From positions 1 to 61,829 of the forward strand of contig JBBCAX010000045.1 in assembly GCA_051382335.1 (NCBI GenBank): a DNA stretch of 61,829 nucleotides. The letters run 5' to 3'. The notes under the pieces are model-generated. The model worked only from the letters and a program-made list of their open reading frames with translations, searched no databases and had not been told where the DNA came from. This stretch comes from Deltaproteobacteria bacterium TL4. Lineage in GTDB: Bacteria > SAR324 > NAC60-12. The first letter of the stretch is position 1. Every line of letters starts with the position of its first letter. Made by a program: the position numbers and the translations under genes. This document shows, piece after piece, positions 16,354 through 61,829 of the stretch.

Positions 16354-16670
16354 TTACTTTGAACGAAGCATTTCCAGGAGCTCCCCCCATCGGAATGTCG
16401 CGGAAAGGTGTTGAAGGGAAATAGCTCTGTTACCACAACAAGAGGCCAGCGCATTTTTGATCGATTCAATCATATCGCTGTGATATTCACCTATATCGGT
16501 ATATAGTTTCCCAAAATGCTCTTTCCGTCGGAATTTTGCCTGATGAGGTTTTTTTCGCCAGATCGCAAGTGTCGCTTCTGCCACAATAGAATTGGTCACC
16601 ACATTTGAACCACCACTACCTTCCTCCCGTTGCCGTTTATAGGAATAGCCCAAATCATGGATTCCAATTT
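16354..16670 (-). pseudogene. Fragment of AIPR-like protein C-terminal region
   Basis: LGYSYKRQREEG...AEATLAIWRKKPHQAKFRRKEHFGKLY recalled as AIPR-family C-terminus; no start. Confidence 0.5.
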
Positions 16671-16905
16671 CAAACCCTTTTCTTTCCGTGTATTCCGTGT
16701 GTTCTGGAGTTATATTTTTTTTATTATTATGGGAACCACGGAACACACATAATACATAGAAAAACTATTTTCAAACCCTTTTCTTTCCGTGTATTCCGTG
16801 TGTTCTGGAGTTATATTTTTTTTTATTATTATGGGAACCACGGAACACACATAATACATAGAAAAACTATTTTCAAACCCTTTTCTTTCCGTGTGTTCCG
16901 TGGTT
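16668..16905. repeat. ~101-bp tandem repeat (2.3 copies) containing CCACGGAACACAC/GTGTTCCGTGG-type inverted motifs
   Basis: caaaccc recurs at 16671, 16772, 16874. Confidence 0.9.
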
Positions 16906-16917
16906 ATAAATTTTTTA

Positions 16918-17190
16918 TCACCAATCCGCCTTCAAGTATTTTTTGAGCTGCCTTCATTGATAACCTCATAGGGAATCATTTTCTTTTTCTGCAGGGGCGC
17001 TATGTTTTTTCCCACGCCGTCGTCGAGGATGGGATTGTAGCCTTCTGCCAGCAGTTCATCAATCTTCACCTTGAAGACTTCGATCTCTTTAAGCTGTTTG
17101 AATAGTATTGCTTTCTCATTCTGGGCGTCAGCGCTCTCGTTATTCGCAAGGTCATTCACAGTTTGGGCATCCTTGGCAGGTTTAAGGTCA
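16918..17190 (-). pseudogene. C-terminal fragment of BREX PglX-like methyltransferase
   Basis: GYNPILDDGVGKNIAPLQKKK; with a 1-nt shift it ends QLKKYLKADW* (TGA 16918-16920). Confidence 0.6.
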
Positions 17191-39075: not shown

Positions 39076-39186
39076 AGGAGTGCCAAAGCTTGCTTTGGCG
39101 AGTTTGCTACTAAACAGGAGTGTCAAAGCTTGCTTTGGCGAGTTTGCTACTAAACAGGAGTGCCAAAGCTTGCTTTGGCGAGTTTG
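39076..39186. repeat. 40-bp tandem repeat (2.8 copies) of the family-A inner hairpin, upstream of cas6
   Basis: aggagtgccaaagcttgctttggcgagtttgctactaaac at 39076, 39116, 39156. Confidence 0.9.
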
Positions 39187-39280
39187 TTTTTATGGAGAGC
39201 TTTGATATATAAGCTTTGAGAAACTTGCTTTTCATTCTTATATCTCAGAACTATCTCTTTTCCACAATTTCAATAAAAAA

Positions 39281-40228
39281 ATGGAGCCAGTTATGGAATA
39301 CGCCCATTTTGACATCCATTGTGAATTTCCCCAACCAACTCGTCTGCCCCGTTTTAAGGGGTCCATGATCCGTGGAGCGATGGGACATGCGTTAAAAGAG
39401 ACTGTTTGTGCGGTTCGGGAAAAAATCTGTGATCGGTGTTTGTTACGGCAAACCTGTTTGTATGCACGGGTTTTTGAAGTCAAACCGGTCAATGGCCCCC
39501 CCATTGGTGTGGTGAATCTGCCCCATCCTTATGTTCTGGATTTCGAGGGCGACCACGCCACAAAAACCGAATTTGCTGAAGGCGAGGCTTTCCAGTTCCG
39601 GTTGTTGTTATTCGGAAGCCTGATTGATATGTTGCCCTATTTTGTCTACACCTTTGACAAAATGGGACAGTCCGGTTTGGGCAAAAATGCGAGAGGAAAT
39701 CGGCAACCTTATCGGCTGAAGGAAGTCCGTCACGACAATCAGGTACTCTATCATAGTGAAGAACCCACCTTGCCCCCGACGATTCCCAGAAAAAACCTGG
39801 AGTGGCACCAGCCCACTCCAGCTCAAGACCTTCTTCGGGTACAAGTCCATTTACTGACTCCTTTGCGTGTTAAAGATCAGAACCGGTTTGTGGAGCATCT
39901 GGAATTCATCATCCTGATCCGCACCATCTTGCGCCGACTCAAAGCGTTGTGGTCAGAATTTGACAAAGCGTGTCCGGAAATTCCTGAAAAACAACTGCTG
40001 CAACTGGCTGAAACCATTACCGTTGAATCCTCCACGCTCAGGTGGGAGGACCAAACCCGCTATTCTTCCCGACAGCAAACCATGCAGAAAATGGGAGGTT
40101 TGCAAGGAACCATCATCTTTACCGGGGAATTAACCCCCTTCCTCCCCTTACTCGCTATGGCTCAAGTGACCCATATCGGCAAAGAAACCAGCTTCGGACT
40201 GGGTAAAATACATTATGACGTGATGTGA
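39281..40228 (+). CDS. cas6: CRISPR pre-crRNA processing endoribonuclease Cas6
   Basis: GSMIRGAMG, Cys cluster, PHPY, C-terminal HIGKETSFGLG. Confidence 0.93.
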   Translation: MEPVMEYAHFDIHCEFPQPTRLPRFKGSMIRGAMGHALKETVCAVREKICDRCLLRQTCLYARVFEVKPVNGPPIGVVNLPHPYVLDFEGDHATKTEFAEGEAFQFRLLLFGSLIDMLPYFVYTFDKMGQSGLGKNARGNRQPYRLKEVRHDNQVLYHSEEPTLPPTIPRKNLEWHQPTPAQDLLRVQVHLLTPLRVKDQNRFVEHLEFIILIRTILRRLKALWSEFDKACPEIPEKQLLQLAETITVESSTLRWEDQTRYSSRQQTMQKMGGLQGTIIFTGELTPFLPLLAMAQVTHIGKETSFGLGKIHYDVM

Positions 40229-40242
40229 ATAATAGGAGTCTT

Positions 40243-42825
40243 ATGTCAAATCAACAACCAAGCTTAGAAGAACTAATACTGGCCTCAATATTTCACGATA
40301 TTGGCAAATTTGGGCAACGGGCAGGTGCTTTACGTTCAGAGGAATTATTGGAAACATTTTCCCCCAGCAAAGATGGAAAGCATTCTCATCTACATGTTCT
40401 GAATACCTACTTTTTTATCGACCAACTGCTTCCACTTCCTAAAAATCTGGACAGGGCAACCATTGCAAGCACTGCGGCAAATCATCACAAAGACGCTCAA
40501 GACTCACAATCACTGGCTGATTCTTGTTTGATAACCGCAGATCATCTTGCCTCAGGAGCCGACAGATATAAACCCACTGAGGCAGAACAAAATGAAGACC
40601 AATATTCTTACATCAGAGAACGGCTCATCAGCATTTTTGAAGAAATCGAATTAAACCAGCATACCTTTGAGAAAGGAAAAGCACAGCGGTATCCTCTCAC
40701 ACCCATTGGAAACGCAGATCCTAAGCCATTTAAAGTTTTATCACAGGAGGAATCCCGACAAGAATATTCCAAACTTTGGAACCAATTCATTCAGGCAATA
40801 AAACAGAATAGTGCGTTAAACACTGCAAGTGGGCAAAATTCAAATCGGAGAGTATTTGAACATTATCTTGGTGCGTTCAGAACAACTTTAGAACAATATC
40901 TCTGGTGTATTCCCTCTTCCAGTTATCAAAGTCTTCCTGACATTTCACTCTATGATCACGGAAACCTGACGGCCTCGATCACTCAAGCGTTGTACTTGTT
41001 TCATCAACAAGAAGGAGGGATCCCTGATAACTCCAAAAATGACGAAGAACAGCAAAAATTTATTTTATTTGGTGGAGATTTGTCAGGGATTCAGAATTAT
41101 ATCTTTGACATCAATAAATCCCATTCAGCAGGTGTCGCAAAACTGTTCCGTGCCCGTTCGTTTTATCTCCAAATGCTGACAAAGGCTTGTATCCTGGAAT
41201 TGCAGGAACAATTGGAATTGTATTCAGTTGCCCAAGTGATGGATGCAGGGGGTAAATTTATGCTGTTGCTCCCCAACACTAAAAAAACACGTGAAATTCT
41301 GTTAAATTTTGAAAAAGAACTCCAGCACTTTTTGTTTCAGCAATTCAAAGGAACATTAGCCATGAATACGTGTTCTATCCCTGTATCTTACAATGATTTA
41401 TTACTCGAAAATTTTTCTAACACACTGAATCGATTTTTTGATACGTTGGAAGCACAAAAACTCCAAAAATTTGAGCATTGTTTAGCAGAGTCTCAATTTA
41501 GCCCACTGTTTCAGATTAATTATAGTCGGGATTACGATGGTAATTGTTGTATTTGTCAAAAAAACAGTGCGTCTGAGAAAAAAAGTGAGGAATTTCATCG
41601 TCAACATCCTGGTGCCGAAGAACGAAAGATTTGTGAAGTCTGTTTTTATCAGATCATTAGCTTGGGTAGTGAGTTGGCTAAAAGTGAGGAGTATCCTTAT
41701 TTCAAACTCTATAAGTCCCCGAAGTCTGAGGACAGTGGTTCCTTTGCACATGATCTGATTTTTGGTTGGAGAGTCAAATTCTTAAAAGTCGTAAACTTTT
41801 CTGATTGGAAGGAAAGTGGGGTTATTTGCAATCGGGTGAATCATGAAAATTATGCTTTTCATCCGATTGCAGGGCACTTGCCATTGATTAGTGAATCAGA
41901 TCTGGAACATTGGCACTGGACAGGTTTTGAAAAAATGCTGTCGGCTCAGGGAGAAAAAGTGGAAATAGGAGAACCTAAAACATTTGAGATGATCGCGCAA
42001 AAATCTGTGTTGATTGATCAGGAAGGAAATCCTAAATCCAAATCGTTTCTCGGTGTCTTGAAAGCGGATGTTGACAATTTGGGCTTCATCTTCTCTATAG
42101 GTTTTCCTAACCAAAAACTTTCAATTTCCCGCTTTGCCACCCTCTCCCGTATGCTCAATTACTTTTTTTCGGTTCGCCTTATGGAGTATATCCGAGCGAA
42201 ATTTCCAGATATTTACGTGATTTTTGCTGGGGGTGATGATTTATTTCTGTTGGGACCTTGGGTGGCTTTGATCGAGTTTTCTCAGGACATTCAAACGTTT
42301 TTTCAGAAATTCACAGCCAATAATCCCGATATCACCTTTTCAGCGGGAATTAATGTGGTGAAACCTTCTCTGCCCATCAAAGACATGGCAAGGCAAACTG
42401 AAGAACTGTTGGAAAAGTCCAAACATTTTGAAGGGAAAGATGCGGTGACCCTGTTTGCGGATACTTCCAAACATCTTGACGGGAAAGATGCGGTGACTCT
42501 GTTTGCTGGTACCATGAAATGGAATGAATTTAGCCAAAAAATTGATGATGGAAAGTTCCTCAGTAAACTGATCCAGGAAGAATCCGTATCGACAGGTGTG
42601 ATCTACAGGATGCTTCAATACCACCATGACGCCATCGAATTCAAGAAAGGAAAGATCAAAAAAGGAATATATTTATCACATTTAAGCTACGACCTGGCCC
42701 GCAACATTAAAGGACCAGATAAATTTAAAAACGCAGAAGATTATCAACGTTTCATGCAATTTAAAGATCACCTGGCAAGTGCAAGAATCCCCTTGCACTA
42801 TGCCCTCTATCGTAATCGCAAATAA
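40243..42825 (+). CDS. cas10: Type III-A Cas10/Csm1 with HD nuclease and intact cyclase Palm
   Basis: FHDIGK, DISLYDH, GDLSGIQNYIF, KADVDNLG, FAGGDDLF. Confidence 0.97.
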   Translation: MSNQQPSLEELILASIFHDIGKFGQRAGALRSEELLETFSPSKDGKHSHLHVLNTYFFIDQLLPLPKNLDRATIASTAANHHKDAQDSQSLADSCLITADHLASGADRYKPTEAEQNEDQYSYIRERLISIFEEIELNQHTFEKGKAQRYPLTPIGNADPKPFKVLSQEESRQEYSKLWNQFIQAIKQNSALNTASGQNSNRRVFEHYLGAFRTTLEQYLWCIPSSSYQSLPDISLYDHGNLTASITQALYLFHQQEGGIPDNSKNDEEQQKFILFGGDLSGIQNYIFDINKSHSAGVAKLFRARSFYLQMLTKACILELQEQLELYSVAQVMDAGGKFMLLLPNTKKTREILLNFEKELQHFLFQQFKGTLAMNTCSIPVSYNDLLLENFSNTLNRFFDTLEAQKLQKFEHCLAESQFSPLFQINYSRDYDGNCCICQKNSASEKKSEEFHRQHPGAEERKICEVCFYQIISLGSELAKSEEYPYFKLYKSPKSEDSGSFAHDLIFGWRVKFLKVVNFSDWKESGVICNRVNHENYAFHPIAGHLPLISESDLEHWHWTGFEKMLSAQGEKVEIGEPKTFEMIAQKSVLIDQEGNPKSKSFLGVLKADVDNLGFIFSIGFPNQKLSISRFATLSRMLNYFFSVRLMEYIRAKFPDIYVIFAGGDDLFLLGPWVALIEFSQDIQTFFQKFTANNPDITFSAGINVVKPSLPIKDMARQTEELLEKSKHFEGKDAVTLFADTSKHLDGKDAVTLFAGTMKWNEFSQKIDDGKFLSKLIQEESVSTGVIYRMLQYHHDAIEFKKGKIKKGIYLSHLSYDLARNIKGPDKFKNAEDYQRFMQFKDHLASARIPLHYALYRNRK

Positions 42826-42836
42826 GGAGGGACCTT

Positions 42837-43289
42837 ATGGCACAACAATATCAAAGTCAGAGACCTATTCCATCGTCTCATAACCAACCACAAAGAGTCG
42901 TGAATTCTAACAACCCCATTCAATATTATACAGATGATAAAAAAGAAATTCTTAATGCCAGTTTATTGACTGATGAGGCACAAAATAATGCAAAACTTTT
43001 TGTTGAGAACAAATTAAAATCCGCGCAACTTCGACGATTTTTTAATACGTTTCGTGCTTTGGAACGCAAAGTGAGTAAAAAAGATTATGCCAATTTTGAG
43101 CAGGTTAAACCTCTCATAAAAATGCAAAAAGCTTATGCGGCTTATGCCAAACAAAAAATTCCGGAATCGTTTAGAATTTTTATTAATAGAAACGTTGATT
43201 CCATTGAAACAAAAGAGGATTTTAAAGCGTTTATGCTCTATTTTGAGTCAGTTGTAGGATATTGCTATGGTGAGGGCATGAAGGATTAA
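42837..43289 (+). CDS. csm2: Csm2 small subunit
   Basis: SAQLRRFF, FMLYFESVVGY; position after cas10. Confidence 0.93.
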   Translation: MAQQYQSQRPIPSSHNQPQRVVNSNNPIQYYTDDKKEILNASLLTDEAQNNAKLFVENKLKSAQLRRFFNTFRALERKVSKKDYANFEQVKPLIKMQKAYAAYAKQKIPESFRIFINRNVDSIETKEDFKAFMLYFESVVGYCYGEGMKD

Positions 43290-43348: not shown

Positions 43349-44050
43349 ATGAAACTTGAAAAAATTTATGAAATCACTGGAATTGTTCAACTACGCAGTG
43401 GACTTCACATAGGCGGCAACAAGGATACCATCGAGATTGGCGGGATGGATCAGCCTATCATCAAATTTCCTGTTGCGAAAGGTTCCCTGTTTTCAGGACA
43501 ACCCTACATCCCTGGTTCGTCGCTCAAAGGTAAAATGCGTTCCATGCTGGAAATTTCAAACTTAGCCAAAGAAAATGGTCCTCAGATTAAAGCTGATGGC
43601 AAACCCTGTGGTTGTGGCAAATGTGTCGTTTGTACTATTTTTGGCACTGCCAACGATACCAAGCCGGATGCTTTGGGGCCAACGCGCATTATCGTGAGGG
43701 ACGCGACCTTAACAGAAGCCTGGCGCAATCGTTTCTCAGACGGTGAACTGCCTATGGAAGAAAAATATGAAAACACCATCCACCGGATTAAAGGCATCGC
43801 TGAACATCCACGCCCCCTGGAAAGGGTTCCGGCTGGAGTGGAATTTGACCTCAGTATTTCGCTAAAAGAATTTGAACATGATCACGAGAAAAAATTGCTC
43901 AACTGGCTTTGGAAGGGATTACGTTTGATTGAACTGGATGGCCTGGGAGGTTCTATCTCCAGGGGTTCGGGTCAAGTGATTTTTGAAAACATCAAAGTGA
44001 ATAACCAGGAAATAAATTGGCGCGATCAAAATCTCTTTGAGGAGAAATAG
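43349..44050 (+). CDS. csm3: Csm3 (Cas7) backbone RNase
   Basis: GLHIGG, IGGMDQP catalytic Asp, YIPGSSLKGKMRS, LGGSISRGSG. Confidence 0.96.
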   Translation: MKLEKIYEITGIVQLRSGLHIGGNKDTIEIGGMDQPIIKFPVAKGSLFSGQPYIPGSSLKGKMRSMLEISNLAKENGPQIKADGKPCGCGKCVVCTIFGTANDTKPDALGPTRIIVRDATLTEAWRNRFSDGELPMEEKYENTIHRIKGIAEHPRPLERVPAGVEFDLSISLKEFEHDHEKKLLNWLWKGLRLIELDGLGGSISRGSGQVIFENIKVNNQEINWRDQNLFEEK

Positions 44051-44052
44051 TC

Positions 44053-45189
44053 ATGAAACTCAATCGTTATCACCTAACCCCTCGCTCTGCGTTGGGAACG
44101 CATCTTAAAAGCGATACACTGACAGGCCAATTGCTGTGTTTATATCGTGAATTAAAGGGAGAATCTGCCTTGAACAGTTGGCTGGCTAATTTCAAAAAAG
44201 GCCAGCCCCCATTCATTTTGAGTGATGCCTTTCCCTACAACACACTACCGGTACCTGTGTTGCCGCCTATCTCCAGAGAACAGTTTAAGCGAATTGCGAA
44301 GGATCATTTTGATGGAAAGATGTTTAACGCACTGAGTGAGCAAAAAAAGATGTTTAACGCACTGAGTGAGCAAAAAAAATTCAAAAAACAATTTCAGTGG
44401 ATCCCTCTTTCTGTTTGGAAGCTTCTGAAGGACGGATTTTCTGTAGAAAAGTTGTTGACTGATTTTATCAAGAGGAAACAGGATGAACAGCCCATTGAAT
44501 CCTTCCACTCTCTTGAACCTGACTTTGACGCCTTGCTAGTAGCGTCAAAGTCAGCAAATGAACAGCCCATTGAATCCTTCCACTCTCTTGAACTCCACAA
44601 CATTATTCATCGGGGAACAGGTCGTACTTTGGAAGCCGGAGGCCTTTTTGTCACGGAAAATACATGGTATCTCCCCAAGACTAACGGGCAACCCGTGTTT
44701 GATTTGTACGCATTGGTTGACCCACAAGAGGAGCAAACACTGGATACTTTATTATTAGACACCTTGGGGTCGAACGGGTTTGGTGCAGATCGAACCGTGG
44801 GGAAAGGACAACTAAAAATTGAAAAATCCAAGGAGGATTGCAGTTTTTTAATCAAGCATCCTCAAACTAGTTCAGAGGATAAGGGAGAATGTCAGGGAAC
44901 GTCACAACTTTTTTGGCTCAATCTCTCTACCTATTGTTCCCAAAACCCAGCTGATCTCAAGGGTTTTTATAAAACCAGAACAAAATTTGGCAAAGTCTGG
45001 AATGGCTTCGGAGAAATGAATCCCTTCAAACATCCTCTGCTGGTGTTTGAATCTGGATCTGTATTTCAAAACCAACCTGCTGATCTCAGTAACACCGTGA
45101 TTCAGGGGATTCATCCAGACAACAAGGCTGTCATACAGTGTACCAGCCCAATCATGATTCCCTTTATTCTCCAACAGGAGGCGCTATGA
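44053..45189 (+). CDS. csm4: Csm4 (Cas5) with two in-frame duplications
   Basis: SDTLTG, LSDAFP, GFGADRTVGKG, FESGSVF. Confidence 0.9.
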   Translation: MKLNRYHLTPRSALGTHLKSDTLTGQLLCLYRELKGESALNSWLANFKKGQPPFILSDAFPYNTLPVPVLPPISREQFKRIAKDHFDGKMFNALSEQKKMFNALSEQKKFKKQFQWIPLSVWKLLKDGFSVEKLLTDFIKRKQDEQPIESFHSLEPDFDALLVASKSANEQPIESFHSLELHNIIHRGTGRTLEAGGLFVTENTWYLPKTNGQPVFDLYALVDPQEEQTLDTLLLDTLGSNGFGADRTVGKGQLKIEKSKEDCSFLIKHPQTSSEDKGECQGTSQLFWLNLSTYCSQNPADLKGFYKTRTKFGKVWNGFGEMNPFKHPLLVFESGSVFQNQPADLSNTVIQGIHPDNKAVIQCTSPIMIPFILQQEAL

Positions 45190-46661
45190 GCCAGCATGAC
45201 AAAAGTTACTTTCCCCTTAAATTGACTGTCCTGACCCCTGTTTCCGTAGGAAGCGGTGATACCCTTAACGCTTTGAACTATGTAGTGGTCAAAGAAAACT
45301 CAGAGTATTATCTTCACTACCTTGATCTGGAACGTCTTTTAACCCTGCATTCAGAAGCTCCTGAATTGGCTCGGCAATTGGGGAATTCCAACTATCTTGC
45401 CATTCGTAAAACTATCTGGAACATGGCAGGACAGGACATCCAACGCTATAGTCTGGGAAAACGCCTGATTCCAGATCCTGACTTTGCCAACAAAATTATA
45501 GGTGAACTCAACGATGCCAAATCAGAAAATCAACTTTTGATTGATGAGGCACTAAAAAATCCTCTCACAGGACGTTTACTGGTTCCGGGAAGCAGCATTA
45601 AAGGAGCCATTCGCACTGCGGTGATCGATTTCTTTGATGTCAAAGATGAACTCAAACTCAAAAATAATTACCAAACAGGATTGGACAATTTACTAGGAAA
45701 AATAGGAGAAAATGTTTTCAAAGCGCTTAAAATTGGTGATTTTGAAACTCGGTTGAATGACGGTTATGTCGTGACCTGCCAGGAAAACAGTCAAAATGCT
45801 GACCGAAAACAAAGCACCCCTAAAAACGCCAGAGAGATACTGCCTAATCGTTTGATGAACCAAACCGATTATAGCTTATGGTCTTCAGGTTCATTGGGGT
45901 TTCAAAAATCAGCACATCAGGCATTGGTCATTAAAAAAGAATCGTTCGATTGGAATCGTCTCTGTGAGGTCGTTAACAAGTTTTACCAGAAACGATTTAG
46001 GGACGAGTTCCAAAAGTTCTACACACACCCCCATCTTCAGAAAACAAGGAACTCTCTGGAAAATTTGATGGCGATTGTCCCTCAAAAAGGGGAGATGCTT
46101 CTGCGAATAGGACATTATTCCCATGTGGAGTGTATGACCGTTACGGAAAATTCCCCACAGACACCATCCAGAAGCGGTAATAAAATGCCTTATGGAACCA
46201 CCCGGACTCTTGCTAACGGTCTTTATCCCTTCGGTTGGGTGCTCCTTGCTAAAAGTAGTGAAGCTGACTTGGAAACTTATCAAGGGGAATTGTCTCAGGA
46301 ATGGAAATCGGCACTCCTAGAGCGAGAACAGCAAATTAATATTCAGAAAGCAAAACAGGAAGAGCAAGAGAGAGAGAAACAACGTGCTGTAGAACAACAA
46401 GCCTTGGAAGAACAAAAACGCATTGAGTCAGAACAACGCAGAAACTCCTTATCTGAAATTGACCGAATGGTAGAAGATATTTTACATCTCCCCGATGCCA
46501 TGCCTCTATACCAAAAACTTGAATCTTTTCAGGGAAAAGACCAACAGAAACTGGCTGAAGCTTTCAAACAACGATTTCATCAAGAGGGTAAATGGGAAGG
46601 CAAACAGTCCGATAAACAGCAGAAAAAAATTGAACGTATTAAACAAATACTCAACCAATAA
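45186..46661 (+). CDS. csm5: Csm5 with C-terminal coiled-coil extension
   Basis: LTPVSVGSG, PGSSIKGAIRTA, LRIGHYS, PFGWV. Confidence 0.92.
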   Translation: MSQHDKSYFPLKLTVLTPVSVGSGDTLNALNYVVVKENSEYYLHYLDLERLLTLHSEAPELARQLGNSNYLAIRKTIWNMAGQDIQRYSLGKRLIPDPDFANKIIGELNDAKSENQLLIDEALKNPLTGRLLVPGSSIKGAIRTAVIDFFDVKDELKLKNNYQTGLDNLLGKIGENVFKALKIGDFETRLNDGYVVTCQENSQNADRKQSTPKNAREILPNRLMNQTDYSLWSSGSLGFQKSAHQALVIKKESFDWNRLCEVVNKFYQKRFRDEFQKFYTHPHLQKTRNSLENLMAIVPQKGEMLLRIGHYSHVECMTVTENSPQTPSRSGNKMPYGTTRTLANGLYPFGWVLLAKSSEADLETYQGELSQEWKSALLEREQQINIQKAKQEEQEREKQRAVEQQALEEQKRIESEQRRNSLSEIDRMVEDILHLPDAMPLYQKLESFQGKDQQKLAEAFKQRFHQEGKWEGKQSDKQQKKIERIKQILNQ

Positions 46662-46670
46662 GGAAATCTC

Positions 46671-47783
46671 ATGGCTACGATTCTCGTTAGTTTAATCAGT
46701 GATCAGACCATTCCCAATTTGCTCTTGATCAAAGAATTCTCCCCAAAGATAGATCGTTATCTGATGGTTTCAACACCAAAAATGGAGGGGAGAAAAGTTT
46801 CCCAAGGGATCATCAAAGCTGCTGGTATTTCACAAGAACTATTTGAAACGGTGAATGTCGAAGAAGATTCGCTCGCTGATATTGACTCAAAACTTCGGGA
46901 TTTGAATTTCGATGAAGCAGATCATTTTATTGTCAATTTAACAGGTGGAACCAAAATTATGTCCCTCGGGATTTACAACTTCTTTCTCAAGCGTTCTAGT
47001 GAAATCTATTACATTCCAGGAGGGAAAAATGTTTACCGAAAATTATTTCCTGAAGTAAAACACAAATTGTTTGATATCCAATACCGCGTTGGAGTCGAGG
47101 AATACCTCACCTGCTATGGGGTTGAAATCAAAAATTCCGGTGAAAATTCGATGACGCAATCTGCTGAATACACTCAGGGCTTTTATGAATTTTACAGTCA
47201 TTTTAAGGATGCCGAATTTGAAATACTGGGAAAACTCAGGGACGTCCGTGAGCGAAACAAATTGCCACTGGCAGAGATTGCTGGACTCGATTCTTTTCTT
47301 CAGAAAATCAAATTTCAACCACAACAACCCATTCTTTTGACAAAAAACGAAATACGTTATCTGACTGGAGACTGGTTTGAGGAATATATTTTTGCGAAGT
47401 TACATAACTTGATAAAACCGCAAGACCATGAAATTTGTAAAGGCCTTACCATCCATCGTCAGCAAACGGATAATGAATTTGATGTCATGTTTACTCGTGA
47501 CAACACTTTATATGTCATTGAGTGTAAAACCAGCATTTATGATGGTCATTCCAAAAAAAATGTACTGACGGATGCATTATATAAGTTGGCAGCGCTTAAA
47601 CAGGATTTTGGGTTGTTTGCCCAAAGTTTCCTCTTCACACTGAGTCAGGAAGGAACCAAGAAAAATCAAGTCCGGGAATTGGATAAAAACCGTGCTAAAG
47701 TCCTGAATGTAACTGTCATCGACAAAACGGCGATCCAGTTGCCTTCAGAAGAATTATTAAAACTCATGAGAATAACTTTATGA
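46671..47783 (+). CDS. Card1/Can2-type (DUF1887) CARF + PD-(D/E)XK nuclease effector
   Basis: CARF motifs LVSLISDQTIPN and VNLTGGTKIM; nuclease GDWFEEY, NEFDV, VIECKT. Confidence 0.88.
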   Translation: MATILVSLISDQTIPNLLLIKEFSPKIDRYLMVSTPKMEGRKVSQGIIKAAGISQELFETVNVEEDSLADIDSKLRDLNFDEADHFIVNLTGGTKIMSLGIYNFFLKRSSEIYYIPGGKNVYRKLFPEVKHKLFDIQYRVGVEEYLTCYGVEIKNSGENSMTQSAEYTQGFYEFYSHFKDAEFEILGKLRDVRERNKLPLAEIAGLDSFLQKIKFQPQQPILLTKNEIRYLTGDWFEEYIFAKLHNLIKPQDHEICKGLTIHRQQTDNEFDVMFTRDNTLYVIECKTSIYDGHSKKNVLTDALYKLAALKQDFGLFAQSFLFTLSQEGTKKNQVRELDKNRAKVLNVTVIDKTAIQLPSEELLKLMRITL

Positions 47784-48100
47784 AACTCCTCCTCCTTTCG
47801 ATTGGACGTGATATTGCCCAGAGCGCGGAAAGTCTGTTGGGCCGAAAAGCCGATGCTGTGGTGCGGGCCGGAGAACTGACTCCGGAAATGTATCCTGAAC
47901 TGCGTCGGCAAATTTATCAGTATTTTAAACAGTGGCAGGGAGAACCCCTTCATCTCGTCCTGTCTGGTCCTGTGGATTTGGCGTTCACTTTAGGACAGAT
48001 TATCGGCATCAATCATTTTGATGTTCAGGTGTTCCATTACGATTCGGCGGGCAGAACTTATCAACCCGTTCCGCCACCCACACGTCACGAAATATTGTAA
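47780..48100 (+). CDS. Small stand-alone half-SAVED-like protein
   Basis: LHLVLSGPVDLAFTLGQ...VQVFHYD...YQP resembles the SAVED C-terminal half; ATGA overlap with the Card1-type gene. Confidence 0.6.
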   Translation: MKLLLLSIGRDIAQSAESLLGRKADAVVRAGELTPEMYPELRRQIYQYFKQWQGEPLHLVLSGPVDLAFTLGQIIGINHFDVQVFHYDSAGRTYQPVPPPTRHEIL

Positions 48101-48156: not shown

Positions 48157-48253
48157 GTAACCGTTTGGCCTGTGAGCGTGAAATCAGTTGTTCCTTGCCA
48201 TATTTTAGCAGTCTCACGGGCACGATGGTTTTGGAGACGCCAAAATCATTTTC
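48157..48253 (-). pseudogene. STAS-like (DUF4325) gene fragment, 5' part
   Basis: ENDFGVSKTIVPVRLLKYGKEQLISRSQAKRL. Confidence 0.75.
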
Positions 48254-48385: not shown

Positions 48386-48488
48386 TTAAGGTTTAGTGTA
48401 TCATTCCAAATGTTCAATCAAGGCTGCTCACTCAAAGTGGGATAGCAGGATGAATTTGTCTCAACACATTTCAAAAATAAGGATCATC

Positions 48489-49553
48489 ATGAAAACGAAA
48501 TTAAAACCCTATCTTCTGTCCCTCTGCGCAATCCCACTGATTCTCAGTTGCTCCAATTTGCCTCAGGAAGACATGCAAACTGAGGATGTGCCCTCTGAAT
48601 CCCAGGCGCAGCAAACGCCATCACCGTCCACGGTGTCGGAGGCTTTTCCTTCTGTGCTCACAACCAGCCGTGAATTAGCCGCTGTCAATGGATGTCCCAA
48701 CGGCGGTGTGGAAATCGAGTTGGGGATTGATGCCAATCTTAACGGAACACTGGATACCAGCGAGATCAATAAAACCGAAATCCTGTGTCACGGAACTGAG
48801 GGAACAGACGGTGTGAAGGGAGCAAATGGTATGAACAGTCTCATTCACACGACGTTTGAAAATGCGGGAGATCAATGTTCTAACGGCGGTTATCGTGTTG
48901 ATATCGGCTTGGATCAGAACAGCGACAGCATTCTGGACTCCAACGAAATTAGCGCTACAACCTATCTCTGCCAGGGTGAAAAAGGCGACAAGGGGGATCA
49001 AGGCGATGCAGGAAATCAGGGTGAAAAAGGTGACAAGGGGGATCAAGGCGATGCAGGAAATCAGGGGGATAAAGGCGACAAGGGGGATCAAGGCGATGCA
49101 GGAAATCAGGGGGATAAAGGCGACAAGGGGGATCAAGGCGAGGCAGGAAATCAGGGGGATAAAGGCGATAAGGGGGATCAAGGCGAGGCGGGAAAGAACG
49201 GAACGGATAATACCATTGTCTCGTATAAAAGTTGTGTAGAGACATTGGACCAGACAGGGACTTTTTCCTTAGTAATGTATCAATATAGTCAAACTGTCTT
49301 AGCCAGCGGTGATGTATTTGTTGCCGCCACGATTATCAGCACAAGTGGCAGCGCCTCCGTATCGTCCCTGTATCCATCCTATCTCGTCGGAGCGCAAAAA
49401 GGAGCGCAAATAGTGAATCATGACGCTTATGGATCTGCTAACTTCGGATTCTGGTATTTCGAAATGCCGCTGTCTACCACATCCTTGAAAATCACCTACA
49501 AGGATTCGGGACTTCCAGGCGGTGAGAAGACATGGACGAAAACCTGTGATTAA
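48489..49553 (+). CDS. Collagen-like lipoprotein with two Cys-containing Ca-binding-type repeats
   Basis: Lipobox ILS-C; two C..GG....G.D.N...LD..EI....LC units; five 45-bp Gly-X-Y repeats at 48972-49196. Confidence 0.85.
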
Positions 49554-49948: not shown

Positions 49949-52129
49949 ATGAAAACAACTCAGAAAAATAAAAACATTTTGGTGACAACCTTGGGGGGAA
50001 CCTGGTCTATTATTCCTGAGTTGATTGGATTCACCAATCCGGAACTGTTGGATCTCTATTATTTTCATCCTCAAAAACAACAACTTAATAGCCAGCGTTC
50101 TAAGTATCATATTCAGCCCATTCATGAAGTGTGGGTTGTGACCTCTTGTGGGAAAAGCACTAAAAGCGCGTTATCCAAGCTTCAGGAATGGTACTCGCAA
50201 GGATTTGAAGCTCTCAAACTTAGAATATGGCAAGCACAAGGTACGGATCAACTTTCCAATTTAGACGAGTGCTTATTGTTGTCTGAGTTGATTCTAACAG
50301 CAGTTCTTCATGCTTCAGAACAATCTAAAGGAGGTCAGCTTCTACTTTCCCTTGCGGGGGGGCGCAAAACCATGAGTGCGGATATGCAGCTTGCGGGAAT
50401 GACTTTTGGTTGTAATGCGCTGCTGCATGTTATTGACAATGGAAGTTCTGAAACTTATAAAGAGAGCAACCCTTCTCTTTTTTTAAAACCTATTCCACAA
50501 GAGCATGGGGGCCTTTTTACTCCCTTAGTCACTGGAGCTTCTGAAAGAAACCAGGTATTGGATATAAAGGACGAATCGATTCTGGATGTAACTGGAAAAA
50601 ATTATCCCTTAGACATGCCAGAAGGAGAGGCTTCACCTTTAGAAATCAAGCTGACGCCAAAGTTGAAACTTGATTTAGATCAACGTCTGCAACAAGCAAA
50701 AAATCTGATGGTTAATTATTCCAGCAATTTGGTAGGCGCTGATAAGAAAACAAATTTTATGGCGTTATATAACCTTCATCCTCATCTCATTAAAAAATTG
50801 CAAGACTGGAAATTTGGACAAAACCCTCAGTTTGAAAAAAAGGAACTGGAGTGGATTAAGCGGCTCCCCAAGACGGAACTCCATTGTCATTTAGGAGGAA
50901 TTGCTGACGCCTCTGAAATCATCGAAATCGCGAAAGTGAATAGTTCGCTGGTGCTGCCACATAAAGAAAGGTTAAAAGACTGGCTGGAATCATGGAAAAA
51001 AATCATTAAAACTGAGAATCCTAAAACGATTCAAGAACACCTGTTAAAAAATAATTCCAAACCAAATCGTCCTTTTCAGACGATAAGAAATGCTGTTCAA
51101 GGGATTCCAGAACCCATTTGTGTTACAGCTTTTATTTTGCTCTTTGAATCCTGTCCTCTTTTGTTAGATCAAGTTATTTACTTTGAACACATAGATGATT
51201 TTCATTTTTGTAAAATTGGGATTGAGTCTTACGAAAGCCTGGGTGATTTACAAGGATCAGCACTTCTGCAAACAGAATCAGCAATACGAAAGGCTTGGAA
51301 AATATTACTTGAAAAAGCGATTGATCACAATGTTCGATACCTTGAAGTACGTTGTTCGCCAGTGAACTACACTCGCGGAGGTTTAGACGCGATGCGCGTT
51401 ATCGAAATAGGGCAACAAATCTGTGCTGAATATCACCATCAGATTGAAGTGGGTTTAATTTTGATTGCAAGTCGGCATGGAAAAATGAGCACGGTTTACC
51501 AGCACATTGAGTTAGCGCAAGAAATCTTAAATACAAAGACCTCTTCCTCCCTTCCCTTGGTTGGCTTTGACCTTGCTGGAAATGAAAACCATAAAAAGGC
51601 ATCAGAAATGCGGAAAGCTTTTCTGCCTTTAATGAAAGAATGTCTTTACCTGACCATTCATGCTGGTGAGACTGAAGACGTTGAGAGCATTTGGGAAGCA
51701 ATCTATCATCTCAACGCCTCAAGAATTGGACACGGGCTAACCCTAAATGAAAATCCTTTGCTGTTAAAACATTTTATTGATAGAAGAATCACTTTGGAAA
51801 TGTGCCCCTCCAGTAATTTCCAAATTATAGGGTTTCAGGATAATTATTATCCTGAACGAAAAGATTTTAACGAATATCCATTAAAAACCTATTTAAAAGA
51901 AGGACTGAAGGTTACGGTTAATACTGATAACCCAGGTATTTCAAAAACTAATTTTACAAAAGAACTGCATAGAGCGGCCAGATTATCACCAGGAGGTTTG
52001 AACGCTTGGGAATTATTACAGTTAATTCGGAACAGTTTTAGAGGGACTTTCCTCTCACATGAACAATCCAGAAAACTTCTTTTGGATGCAGAAAAAGAAA
52101 TCGTACAAATCCTTAGGAATGAGAATTAA
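49949..52129 (+). CDS. cad1: CARF-adenosine deaminase effector (Cad1/CAAD type)
   Basis: CARF LVTTLG...SLAGGRKTMSA; deaminase ELHCHLGG, HAGE, RIGHG, EMCPSSN, NTDNP. Confidence 0.92.
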   Translation: MKTTQKNKNILVTTLGGTWSIIPELIGFTNPELLDLYYFHPQKQQLNSQRSKYHIQPIHEVWVVTSCGKSTKSALSKLQEWYSQGFEALKLRIWQAQGTDQLSNLDECLLLSELILTAVLHASEQSKGGQLLLSLAGGRKTMSADMQLAGMTFGCNALLHVIDNGSSETYKESNPSLFLKPIPQEHGGLFTPLVTGASERNQVLDIKDESILDVTGKNYPLDMPEGEASPLEIKLTPKLKLDLDQRLQQAKNLMVNYSSNLVGADKKTNFMALYNLHPHLIKKLQDWKFGQNPQFEKKELEWIKRLPKTELHCHLGGIADASEIIEIAKVNSSLVLPHKERLKDWLESWKKIIKTENPKTIQEHLLKNNSKPNRPFQTIRNAVQGIPEPICVTAFILLFESCPLLLDQVIYFEHIDDFHFCKIGIESYESLGDLQGSALLQTESAIRKAWKILLEKAIDHNVRYLEVRCSPVNYTRGGLDAMRVIEIGQQICAEYHHQIEVGLILIASRHGKMSTVYQHIELAQEILNTKTSSSLPLVGFDLAGNENHKKASEMRKAFLPLMKECLYLTIHAGETEDVESIWEAIYHLNASRIGHGLTLNENPLLLKHFIDRRITLEMCPSSNFQIIGFQDNYYPERKDFNEYPLKTYLKEGLKVTVNTDNPGISKTNFTKELHRAARLSPGGLNAWELLQLIRNSFRGTFLSHEQSRKLLLDAEKEIVQILRNEN

Positions 52130-53499: not shown

Positions 53500-54651
53500 A
53501 TGATTGTTTATGTAAAACACCAGGGAGCAACCATTAACCGGCATGGACAAACACTGGTGGTTCAGAAGGATGATTTCAAACAGACCCTCTTTGTTCATCG
53601 GCTGGAACTTCTGGTAATCGTAGGACATGTAGAATTGACCTTACCTGCCATCAATCTTCTATGTCGTGAAAATATTGACACCGTTTTTATAACGCTCAAT
53701 GGTCGTTATAAAGGACGTCTGGAAACCGAAGAAAGCAAAAATGTTTTTTTAGCCAAACGTCAATTTGACTCTCTACATGACCATGATTTTTGTTTGCGCT
53801 TCGCAAAATCTGTAGTGCTTGGAAAATTAAGTAATATGGCAACGCTGATTGGACGAATTAAACGGCGAAATAAAGTTATCAGTGCTTCATTTTTTGAAAA
53901 ACCTATTCGGGAAATCTATGATTTAATTCCCAAAGCTCAAACTGCCGAAAGTATAGAATCCCTACGGGGATATGAAGGTTTGGGAACCGCATTGTTTTTT
54001 CAAGCCTATCAAAAAGGGTTTCTTGACGACCTTAATTTTCACAAACGGATTCGTAGGCCGCCTACGGATCCTGTCAACTCCTTGTTGTCGTTCTTGTACA
54101 CGCTTCTGTTTAACAGGATGTATGCCGCTGTTCGAATTGTCGGTTTGAATCCTGCGGTGGGTTACCTCCATTCCCTTGATTATGGAAGACATTCACTGGT
54201 TTTGGACTTGATTGAAGAGTTTCGCTCTATTGTTGTTGAAACTTGTGTGTTGAGTATTTTTAATCTCAAAATCCTTAATAAAGACAGTTTTTACTTTGAA
54301 GATCTGCCTGTAGCTGAACCTGAATTAACCCTACGACCCAGTGTCGCAAAAGACAGTATAGGACATATTTTTGAAAATACGGACGATGGTTATTTTGATG
54401 TCGCTGAACAAAAGGTTGAAGAAAATTCACAATTGGAACATGAACCTAATGAAAAACGCCCCTGTCGTCTAAGACCAGATGCGCTCAAACGGGTTCTGGA
54501 GTCTTTTGAGGAAAAACTTGAAACAGAATTTCAACACCCCTTAACCAACACTCGTGTCAATTATACTGAAGCTATGGTCACCCAAGCTCAACTTTTTAGA
54601 GAATTCATTGAGGGAACCCGAGCTGCTTATCAACCACTACAACTAAAGTAG
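53500..54651 (+). CDS. cas1: Cas1 integrase
   Basis: LRGYEG, RRPPTDPVNSLLSFLY, GYLH, SLVLDLIEEFR. Confidence 0.96.
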   Translation: MIVYVKHQGATINRHGQTLVVQKDDFKQTLFVHRLELLVIVGHVELTLPAINLLCRENIDTVFITLNGRYKGRLETEESKNVFLAKRQFDSLHDHDFCLRFAKSVVLGKLSNMATLIGRIKRRNKVISASFFEKPIREIYDLIPKAQTAESIESLRGYEGLGTALFFQAYQKGFLDDLNFHKRIRRPPTDPVNSLLSFLYTLLFNRMYAAVRIVGLNPAVGYLHSLDYGRHSLVLDLIEEFRSIVVETCVLSIFNLKILNKDSFYFEDLPVAEPELTLRPSVAKDSIGHIFENTDDGYFDVAEQKVEENSQLEHEPNEKRPCRLRPDALKRVLESFEEKLETEFQHPLTNTRVNYTEAMVTQAQLFREFIEGTRAAYQPLQLK

Positions 54652-61433: not shown

Positions 61434-61658
61434 TTTTCCGCCAACCTAAATCAAGTTTTTAGACAAAAACATAAGCTATTGATATTAAAAGTTTTTTTAT
61501 AATTATTAAGAATGGGGTTGGCGACTCAATAATAATCAATAATAACAGTAAGTTAAAAATATGGTGTTAAAATGATCACGAAATTTATAAGTTTTTGCGA
61601 GAGGTTGGCGTTTTCAGGGCCTGAAGCCCTTGCAAAATCAAGCCGCGCCAGCTCCTGC
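61434..61658 (+). promoter_or_regulatory. CRISPR leader
   Basis: AT-rich non-coding region between cas2 and the first repeat; recurring GGTTGGCG motif. Confidence 0.8.
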
Positions 61659-61829
61659 CTAAGAACTGACCTGATTTAAGAAGGGATTACGACAACAACG
61701 TCTGCGCCTCGTTCAGCATGTACTCTTCGACTAAGAACTGACCTGATTTAAGAAGGGATTACGACCCTAGACTGTTAAGCGGTTCCCGCTAGAGGTTCCT
61801 TACTAAGAACTGACCTGATTTAAGAAGGG
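61659..61829 (+). CRISPR. CRISPR array start; repeat (A)CTAAGAACTGACCTGATTTAAGAAGGGATTACGAC (35-36 bp), 36-37-bp spacers, cut by the window end
   Basis: Repeats at 61659, 61731, 61803 (partial) separated by two unique spacers. Confidence 0.97.

Follow-up and report, generated by a model that had tools for sequence, protein, structure and literature searches.

Ring nucleases and sponges set whether a cell recovers from its own type III CRISPR response or dies, and eight extrinsic families of such proteins have been counted so far in the cited part of a recent report (PMC13148439). The described systems closest to the one considered here are AcrIII-2 (Crn5, vSAVED; PDB 9R8S), CalpL (SAVED4 domain in PDB 7QDA, 8B0R and 9EYJ) and Csx15. 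As far as the cited portions of the reports go, all three stack head-to-tail and so trap cyclic tetra-adenylate (cA4) in a composite site; the chains of AcrIII-2 and CalpL have two lobes each, whereas Csx15 pairs single-lobe chains into a homodimer. This site joins a histidine of the b1-a1 loop and a serine on the head face to arginines on the tail face (PMC12751052; PMC13148439; bioRxiv 10.64898/2026.10.26.761840). In this study, we analysed a gene for a protein of 106 amino acids (aa), located at 47780-48100 on the + strand of a 61,829-nucleotide (nt) stretch of Deltaproteobacteria bacterium TL4 (GTDB lineage Bacteria; SAR324; NAC60-12; assembly GCA_051382335.1, contig JBBCAX010000045.1, positions 1 to 61,829), hereafter the window. 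We found that this protein is one SAVED lobe, or half-SAVED, and that its gene sits in a type III-A locus directly behind a Can2/Card1 effector gene. It probably binds a cyclic oligoadenylate (cOA) and lowers signalling in some way. The fuller account, to which we give slightly less than an even chance, is that a SAVED4-type cOA-sensor lobe acts as an extrinsic type III-A off-switch, its homodimers stacking on cA4 and removing it by slow cleavage together with sequestration.

The ATG of the gene lies within the stop codon of the preceding 370-aa gene (46671-47783, + strand), and the two overlap by 4 nt as ATGA. This coupling had been read correctly in the original prediction, which was made from the letters of the window. 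The motifs it listed are also present exactly, the translation holding LHLVLSGPVDLAFTLGQ, FHYD and YQP, and the upstream gene is, as proposed there, a Can2/Card1 effector with a CARF domain and a PD-D/ExK nuclease (Pfam CARF_Card1, 5.1e-38; Card1_endonuc, 1.5e-16; PADLOC CARF4--CARF_PDDEXK, 1.9e-64). The 106-aa protein matches Pfam SAVED (PF18145; 3.8e-9, 37 bits against a curated cut-off of 26.2) and NCBIfam SAVED (NF033611; 1.8e-10, 40.8 bits against a cut-off of 33), in both cases on the final third of the model only (positions 128-187 of 190 and 196-257 of 261). In the PADLOC model PDLC02008 ("SAVED4--SAVED", 104 positions), residues 4-98 fall on profile positions 5-97 (1.8e-15). These SAVED-type sensor models are its only family matches in Pfam, NCBIfam and PADLOC; neither these libraries nor the AlphaFold2 (AF2) model show an effector domain in it, in agreement with the original prediction, and all 106 residues form the lobe.

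Comparisons with solved proteins point the same way. When searched against PDB sequences, the 106-aa sequence alone matches both lobes of AcrIII-2 (9r8s, 1.1e-5), and a 57-row family profile matches two stretches each of 9r8s (3.3e-15) and CalpL (8b0r/7qda, 3.6e-12), followed by Cap4, CcaCalpL and TIR-SAVED. The AF2 model (predicted local distance difference test, pLDDT, 97.2; predicted template modelling score, pTM, 0.88; every residue at pLDDT >=90) shows the topology b1-a1-b2-a2-b3-a3-b4-b5, with a b4-b5 hairpin and a short C-terminal helix. A Foldseek search with this model, the check for a SAVED or CARF structural match that had been proposed, returned SAVED entries in nearly all of its top rows, with the highest identity to 9r8s (25%). 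CARF proteins (Csm6, Can2, the CARF domain of Cad1 and Sis0811) score 7.6-6.4 in the fold search. The lobe thus has the fold of solved SAVED lobes and is nearer to those than to CARF. Since the SAVED models, the matches to both lobes of AcrIII-2 and CalpL, the AF2 fold and the Foldseek rows all agree, the description as a half-SAVED is correct. The two lobes in one chain that make SAVED a pseudo-dimer are not found here, where the protein is one lobe. In addition, full-length homologues, 56 profile relatives and the high pLDDT mark the frame as a real gene and not a chance one.

On grounds of analogy, we regard Csx15 as the best functional model for the 106-aa protein. Each is a small protein of type III loci whose one CARF/SAVED-like lobe has a sheet of five strands and a b4-b5 hairpin, and the HaCsx15 gene adjoins a Can2/Card1 gene as the 106-aa gene does (bioRxiv 10.64898/2026.10.26.761840). 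The Csx15 homodimer is reported to equal one SAVED domain and, by forming head-to-tail filaments, to function as either ring nuclease or sponge, and transmembrane (TM)-fused and duplicated forms of Csx15 are also described in the cited portions of these sources (bioRxiv 10.64898/2026.10.26.761840; PMC13148439). By the NCBIfam model, however, the half-SAVED family is not Csx15. Model NF040560 (CAS_Csx15; cut-off 35 bits) does not match the 106-aa protein at E<=1, and it is absent among the 25 families listed of the 52 recorded for the 57 family rows. When the window's own genome is scanned in six frames at E<=10, it leaves the open reading frame (ORF) unmatched and gives only an unrelated 19-bit match on contig C43. 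It has no match either in G060 (a second genome of the same phylum), in two archaeal genomes or in a sample of 401 genomes from the phylum of G089. No Csx15 entry stands among the matches listed from the fold search (library to 2026-04-08). The model PF09652 (Cas_VVA1548), which probably represents Csx16 and not Csx15, has no match in the window's own genome or in 88 genomes of its phylum, a result without bearing on Csx15. The two proteins also differ in length (106 aa against a 125-position model), in the residue of motif I (Arg, not His) and in the C-terminal helix, which is short and carries one conserved Arg, R102 (40 of the 57 rows), compared with R118, R122 and R125 in HaCsx15. Moreover, the 106-aa protein is detectably similar in sequence to SAVED4, while its comparison with Csx15 runs through the sequence model and the published description.

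Judged by its sequence, the 106-aa protein is closest to the SAVED4 lobes of AcrIII-2 and CalpL. These have two lobes per chain instead of one and a catalytic histidine (H128 and H396, respectively) in place of arginine. AcrIII-2 is viral, whereas the 106-aa protein is cellular, CRISPR-encoded and free of any protease part. Searches of viral contigs, phage records and plasmids returned no copy of the family, and a fold search of BFVD gave only weak matches to small uncharacterised viral proteins (12-15% identity in the best five rows). The short form and its membrane-anchored variant are already modelled in PADLOC as PDLC02008 and PDLC02011 ("SAVED4--SAVED_TM"), bare models with neither a description nor a tested function. 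Both presumably derive from the 2020 CARF/SAVED classification. As for the other extrinsic off-switches, Crn1-Crn4, Csx16 and Csx20 share with the 106-aa protein the place in type III loci and the expected cA4-degrading role (PMC12409355, in its cited part).

A word-based search returned four full-length relatives of 106-108 aa with 63-67% identity. An exhaustive profile search over 1.84 billion representatives gave 56 hits at E<=1e-3, of which 15 reach E<=1e-10 and two E<=1e-30. The family alignment (A2) contains 57 rows, namely 52 of the profile hits, the query and the four close relatives. Three long repeat proteins in which 6-10 short stretches matched (P0008, P0055 and P0060) were left out, and the tandem protein P0017 was kept aside. 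Pfam SAVED matches 56 of the 57 rows and NCBIfam SAVED 55. A simple hydropathy rule sorts the rows into 21 stand-alone proteins, 19 with hydrophobic segments at the N terminus and 17 with N-terminal extensions of another kind. The conserved positions are G9 (39 rows), R10 (43), S62 (52), G63 (49), P64 (51), G72 (56), Q73 (51), G76 (48), H79 (33), Y94 (56), P98 (43) and R102; position 10 is Lys in three further rows and His in two. The clade linked to CRISPR loci also keeps S7, D11, K50, N78 and H79. Of these, S7 lies in the motif-I loop, in which Crn1 and Csx15 are reported to carry a serine (PMC13148439). Finally, P0017 consists of an N-terminal helix and two tandem half-SAVED units. Its model (pLDDT 75.4, pTM 0.59; 62-74 in the second unit) matches whole SAVED domains and thus suggests that two units of this family can pack like both lobes of SAVED4.

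In the window's phylum, the gene was found in two of 88 genomes, the window's own, where it is single-copy, and G060. Contig scans with alignment A1 gave no match, and the narrower alignments A3 and A5 were used for related loci; the metagenome scan yielded eight loci. In the close subfamily, a CARF effector stands directly upstream in seven of seven loci (the window, G060 and L006-L010) and belongs to one of four kinds: Can2, Csx1, CARF-RelE or Cad1. Start and stop codons overlap with the effector gene in four of the seven. G060 holds a complete III-A locus that continues as Csx1, about 200 nt, the half-SAVED gene, one ORF and cas1. In L006, where the III-A backbone is visible up to csm5, this gene is followed by two small ORFs, CARF-RelE, the half-SAVED gene (TAATG) and cas1-cas2-cas2. 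The half-SAVED proteins of G060 and L006 match PDLC02008 at 7.8e-19 and 6.8e-17. L007 has CARF-RelE and the half-SAVED gene with an ATGA overlap, L008 has Csx1, Cad1, the half-SAVED gene (ATGA) and cas1-cas2-cas2, and L009 and L010 have Csx1, 292 nt, the half-SAVED gene and cas1. Accordingly, cas1 comes after the half-SAVED gene in L006, L008, L009 and L010. CARF effectors and cas1/cas2 are all that is visible in L007-L010, and the complete III-A loci are those of the window and G060. Altogether, the seven loci associate this close subfamily with type III CRISPR systems. This pattern behind four CARF effector types fits a general cA4 regulator, and since the gene follows all four across the seven loci, its role appears tied to cOA signalling and not to one effector. 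As a separate observation, the Csx1 gene (CARF-HEPN) upstream of the homologue in G060 (L005, 5430-6606, - strand) is split into ORFs of 117 aa and 298 aa that match the same PADLOC model, and it may carry a frameshift.

Other copies have different surroundings. A distant 107-aa copy precedes cas1-cas2 in L011; a decayed, internally deleted ORF of 61 aa comes right after cmr6 of a III-B module (L012:1961-2146), and a gene fragment lies on an AT-rich contig (L013:2274-2384). An archaeal branch is represented by a Bathyarchaeota metagenome-assembled genome (MAG; L014, 669-5306) and a Desulfurococcaceae MAG (L015, 2349-8259; L016, 6312-7468). In this branch, the half-SAVED gene overlaps an upstream gene of 249-288 aa without known function. 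In L014 and L015, it is followed by genes for a bpMoxR AAA+ ATPase, an unknown 428-aa protein and a KH-domain protein. This MoxR/KH operon may be a separate nucleotide-signalling or mobile module. A primase-polymerase/PriX gene also lies nearby in L015.

To place candidate site residues, we used a hidden Markov model (HMM) alignment with AcrIII-2, in which the chain index of 9r8s equals the paper numbering plus 7. R96, K99, H128, Q178 and S194, whose roles come from residues mutated in the cited part of PMC12751052, all land on R, K, H, Q and S. In this alignment, S62 falls on S194 and K50 on Q178, and R102 lies one position before R96, whose tail-face counterpart in CalpL is R358; this placement is given by the alignment only. 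Both the head and the tail face thus seem to be conserved, as a stacking ligand trap requires, while the general acid/base histidine seems to be missing. We propose the following mechanism. Since the tandem units of P0017 model as a whole SAVED domain, we infer that the 106-aa protein would pair into a symmetric homodimer equal to one SAVED domain. Such homodimers would stack head-to-tail around cA4. The composite site would be formed by Ser62 and Arg10 on the head face and Arg102 on the tail face, by alignment to S194, H128 and R96. In this way, cA4 would be withdrawn from Can2 and Cad1 by slow cleavage, with a contribution from sequestration. The premise of the original prediction that Card1/Can2 is not known to degrade its activator agrees with a report, cited here in part, of Can2 without ring-nuclease activity (PMC10783487), and an off-switch supplied by another protein fits such an effector.

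Several observations weigh against this proposal. The first concerns catalysis, as R10 occupies the position of the catalytic H128 of AcrIII-2, so that the head face would present arginine and not the expected histidine. H128 has been equated with CalpL H396, HaCsx15 H8 and CliCsx15 H13, and His-to-Ala changes in these enzymes are reported to abolish cleavage and keep binding (PMC13148439; bioRxiv 10.64898/2026.10.26.761840). Since Arg10 stands at the His position and the altered enzymes still bind, the 106-aa protein may bind without cutting. Moreover, Arg10 is also kept in membrane-anchored, sensor-like relatives, which favours a binding over a catalytic role for this residue. As for the assembly, homodimerisation is plausible, its ground being the indirect one of the P0017 model, which is only moderately confident. 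The number of context loci is small, since the proteins of L008, L009 and L010 are almost the same and the seven loci reduce to about five independent lineages. The family is also not bound to CRISPR everywhere, as no cas gene occurs within the 5-11 kb of sequence available around the archaeal copies (L014-L016). In addition, the locus might already obtain ring-nuclease activity from its Cad1, given that TaqCad1, one studied homologue, is reported to have intrinsic cA4 ring-nuclease activity and to degrade cA4 (PMC12669630). The earlier remark that no Crn1-3 gene is recognisable in the locus therefore needs a qualification: no model of the Crn1, Crn2, Crn3, Csx16 or Csx20 type matches among the other locus ORFs scanned, but Cad1 is present. 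Lastly, the novelty claimed for a single-half SAVED off-switch that links CARF and SAVED is reduced. A half-SAVED homodimer as ring nuclease or sponge and as SAVED precursor was published in 2026 for Csx15 (PMC13148439; bioRxiv 10.64898/2026.10.26.761840, as cited in part), PADLOC models the short form, and AcrIII-2 and CalpL, its closest relatives of solved structure, are ring nucleases that have been characterised.

The main rival to slow cleavage is a pure cA4 sponge or buffer, whose homodimers would stack on cA4 without cleavage and dampen signals that are weak or arise by accident, a role proposed for PfCsx15. We consider this possible, and less probable than slow cleavage, which is the likeliest of the accounts. 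The arginine in place of the catalytic histidine, shared with the membrane-anchored relatives, is what a sponge would lead one to expect; with the His-to-Ala change, HaCsx15 and CliCsx15 retain both binding and multimerisation (bioRxiv 10.64898/2026.10.26.761840; PMC13148439), and PfCsx15 is reported to be a non-enzymatic sponge (PMC13148439). However, the cited part of the same report argues that a sponge is a poor fit for type III systems, which make much cOA (PMC13148439). PfCsx15 is an orphan, whereas the CRISPR-linked Csx15s described there cleave. Moreover, the CRISPR-linked clade of half-SAVED proteins adds the motif-I serine and keeps His79 and Arg102.

The membrane-anchored relatives also raise the reading that the 106-aa protein is a sensor subunit, with ligand-driven stacks that recruit or activate another protein, or co-assemble with the effector, and so amplify the response. 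SAVED or Csx15-like lobes fused to Lon, TIR, CHAT, Schlafen or TM parts act as activating sensors (PDB titles; PMC13462974, as cited in part), and the hydrophobic segments or other extensions at the N terminus of many family rows (19 and 17 of 57) are in line with this. Nevertheless, the 106-aa protein has no extra part, its 106 residues lying entirely within the fold. The loci offer no conserved unknown partner gene, and the upstream effectors differ, each with a CARF sensor of its own. This reading is therefore unlikely. We consider it somewhat less likely still that the protein is an effector-specific regulator or adaptor that binds Can2/Card1 directly. The ATGA coupling to can2 in the window would suit such a role, as coupled genes often encode partners. 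However, the half-SAVED gene is coupled to CARF-RelE in L006 and L007 and to Cad1 in L008, and it follows Csx1 at about 200-290 nt in G060, L009 and L010, which does not fit one protein partner; the reading of a Can2-specific partner was rejected on this varying upstream effector. Finally, the decayed copies in L012 and L013 might suggest that the gene is a functionless leftover from a larger SAVED4 effector gene of the Lon-SAVED or TM-SAVED kind. This is highly improbable and was rejected on the full-length conservation of the protein: several lineages keep it at 55-67% identity, with starts that are intact and stops that overlap, 21 of 57 rows are stand-alone, and every model residue has a pLDDT >=90.

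The remaining features of the type III-A locus all lie on the + strand of the window. The order is cas6 (39281-40228; Pfam CRISPR_Cas6, 2.5e-16), cas10/csm1 (40225-42825; Pfam Cas10-Cmr2_palm2, 2.5e-35; Csm1_B, 2.1e-21; HD, 1.3e-4; GGDD and HD motifs in the translation), csm2 (42837-43289; Pfam Csm2_III-A, 8.8e-17), csm3 (43349-44050; Pfam RAMPs, 6.9e-17), csm4 (44053-45189; PADLOC Csm4, 1.7e-55) and csm5 (45138-46661; PADLOC Csm5, 1.2e-22). These genes are followed by can2 and the half-SAVED gene, by a DUF7151/collagen-repeat gene for 385 aa (48396-49553; two DUF7151 units, Pfam 3.9e-31) and by Cad1, the CARF-adenosine deaminase (49949-52129; PADLOC CARF5--CARF_ADA, 2.6e-211; Pfam A_deaminase, 3.6e-50), which is the second cOA-sensing effector of the locus. 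Between Cad1 and the CRISPR array lie the ORF of a putative Cas1 (53500-54651), which marks a downstream adaptation module, an AddB/AddA-like pair and a putative cas2. The array starts at 61658 and is cut by the window end at 61829; its repeat measures about 36 nt with a 72-nt period (repeat families D7 and D10). Cas10 is the predicted cOA source, since the Cas10 palm model matches three times in the window's own genome, where no SMODS cyclase was found. Two of these palm-domain matches lie outside the window (G000 contigs C237:20337-20741 and C160:7962-8375). This genome may thus hold as many as three type III-like loci, on which the half-SAVED protein could act in trans.

We also noted some features around these genes. 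The 385-aa protein has an N-terminal hydrophobic stretch, and its collagen-like repeats form family D1, with 10 overlapping register copies of a 90-nt reference. The gene, which separates the half-SAVED gene from Cad1, seems to have been inserted into the CRISPR ancillary module. A terminator-like hairpin at 48224-48250 was rejected, such hairpins being no more frequent than by chance (3 found against 3.2 expected). Within cas10, an in-frame 48-nt unit occurs twice at 42411-42506 with 88% identity, giving repeated peptide segments. Two further in-frame duplications with the same effect lie in csm4 (44316-44375 and 44483-44593), one a tandem pair of 30-nt units and the other two copies of a 36-nt unit spaced 75 nt apart. 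Three 40-nt tandem repeats (family D6) lie directly 5' of cas6 at 39076-39195. Further upstream, tandem repeats of about 101 nt (families D3 and D4) occupy an AT-rich stretch at 16668-16925.

A literature search for half-, mini- or hemi-SAVED, SAVED4 and stand-alone TM-SAVED proteins, with the 2020 classification and preprint supplements outside its scope, did not return a description of this family; on half-SAVED proteins it yielded only the Csx15 preprint. The half-SAVED family is thus catalogued computationally in PADLOC and undescribed in the literature searched. It may be mentioned in the 2020 CARF/SAVED classification or in the supplement of the Csx15 preprint, or be one of the minor clusters of that preprint. 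We regard it as possible, if rather doubtful, that it represents a ninth CRISPR off-switch family, a true single-lobe SAVED4 with free, membrane-anchored and tandem forms, whose Arg-based, His-independent site destroys or locks cA4 for at least four effectors. A 106-aa cA4 quencher could also be used to reset diagnostics built on Can2 or Csx1.

If true, this would extend the list of off-switches by a family with sequence-level kinship to SAVED4. It would also offer a test of whether stacking single-lobe dimers cleave cA4 by another chemistry or buffer it. Single-lobe proteins would then be linked to SAVED4 by sequence, and not by structure alone as has been argued for Csx15. Moreover, the free, membrane-anchored and tandem forms of the family would provide a sequence-traceable series for the origin of the two-lobed SAVED sensors.

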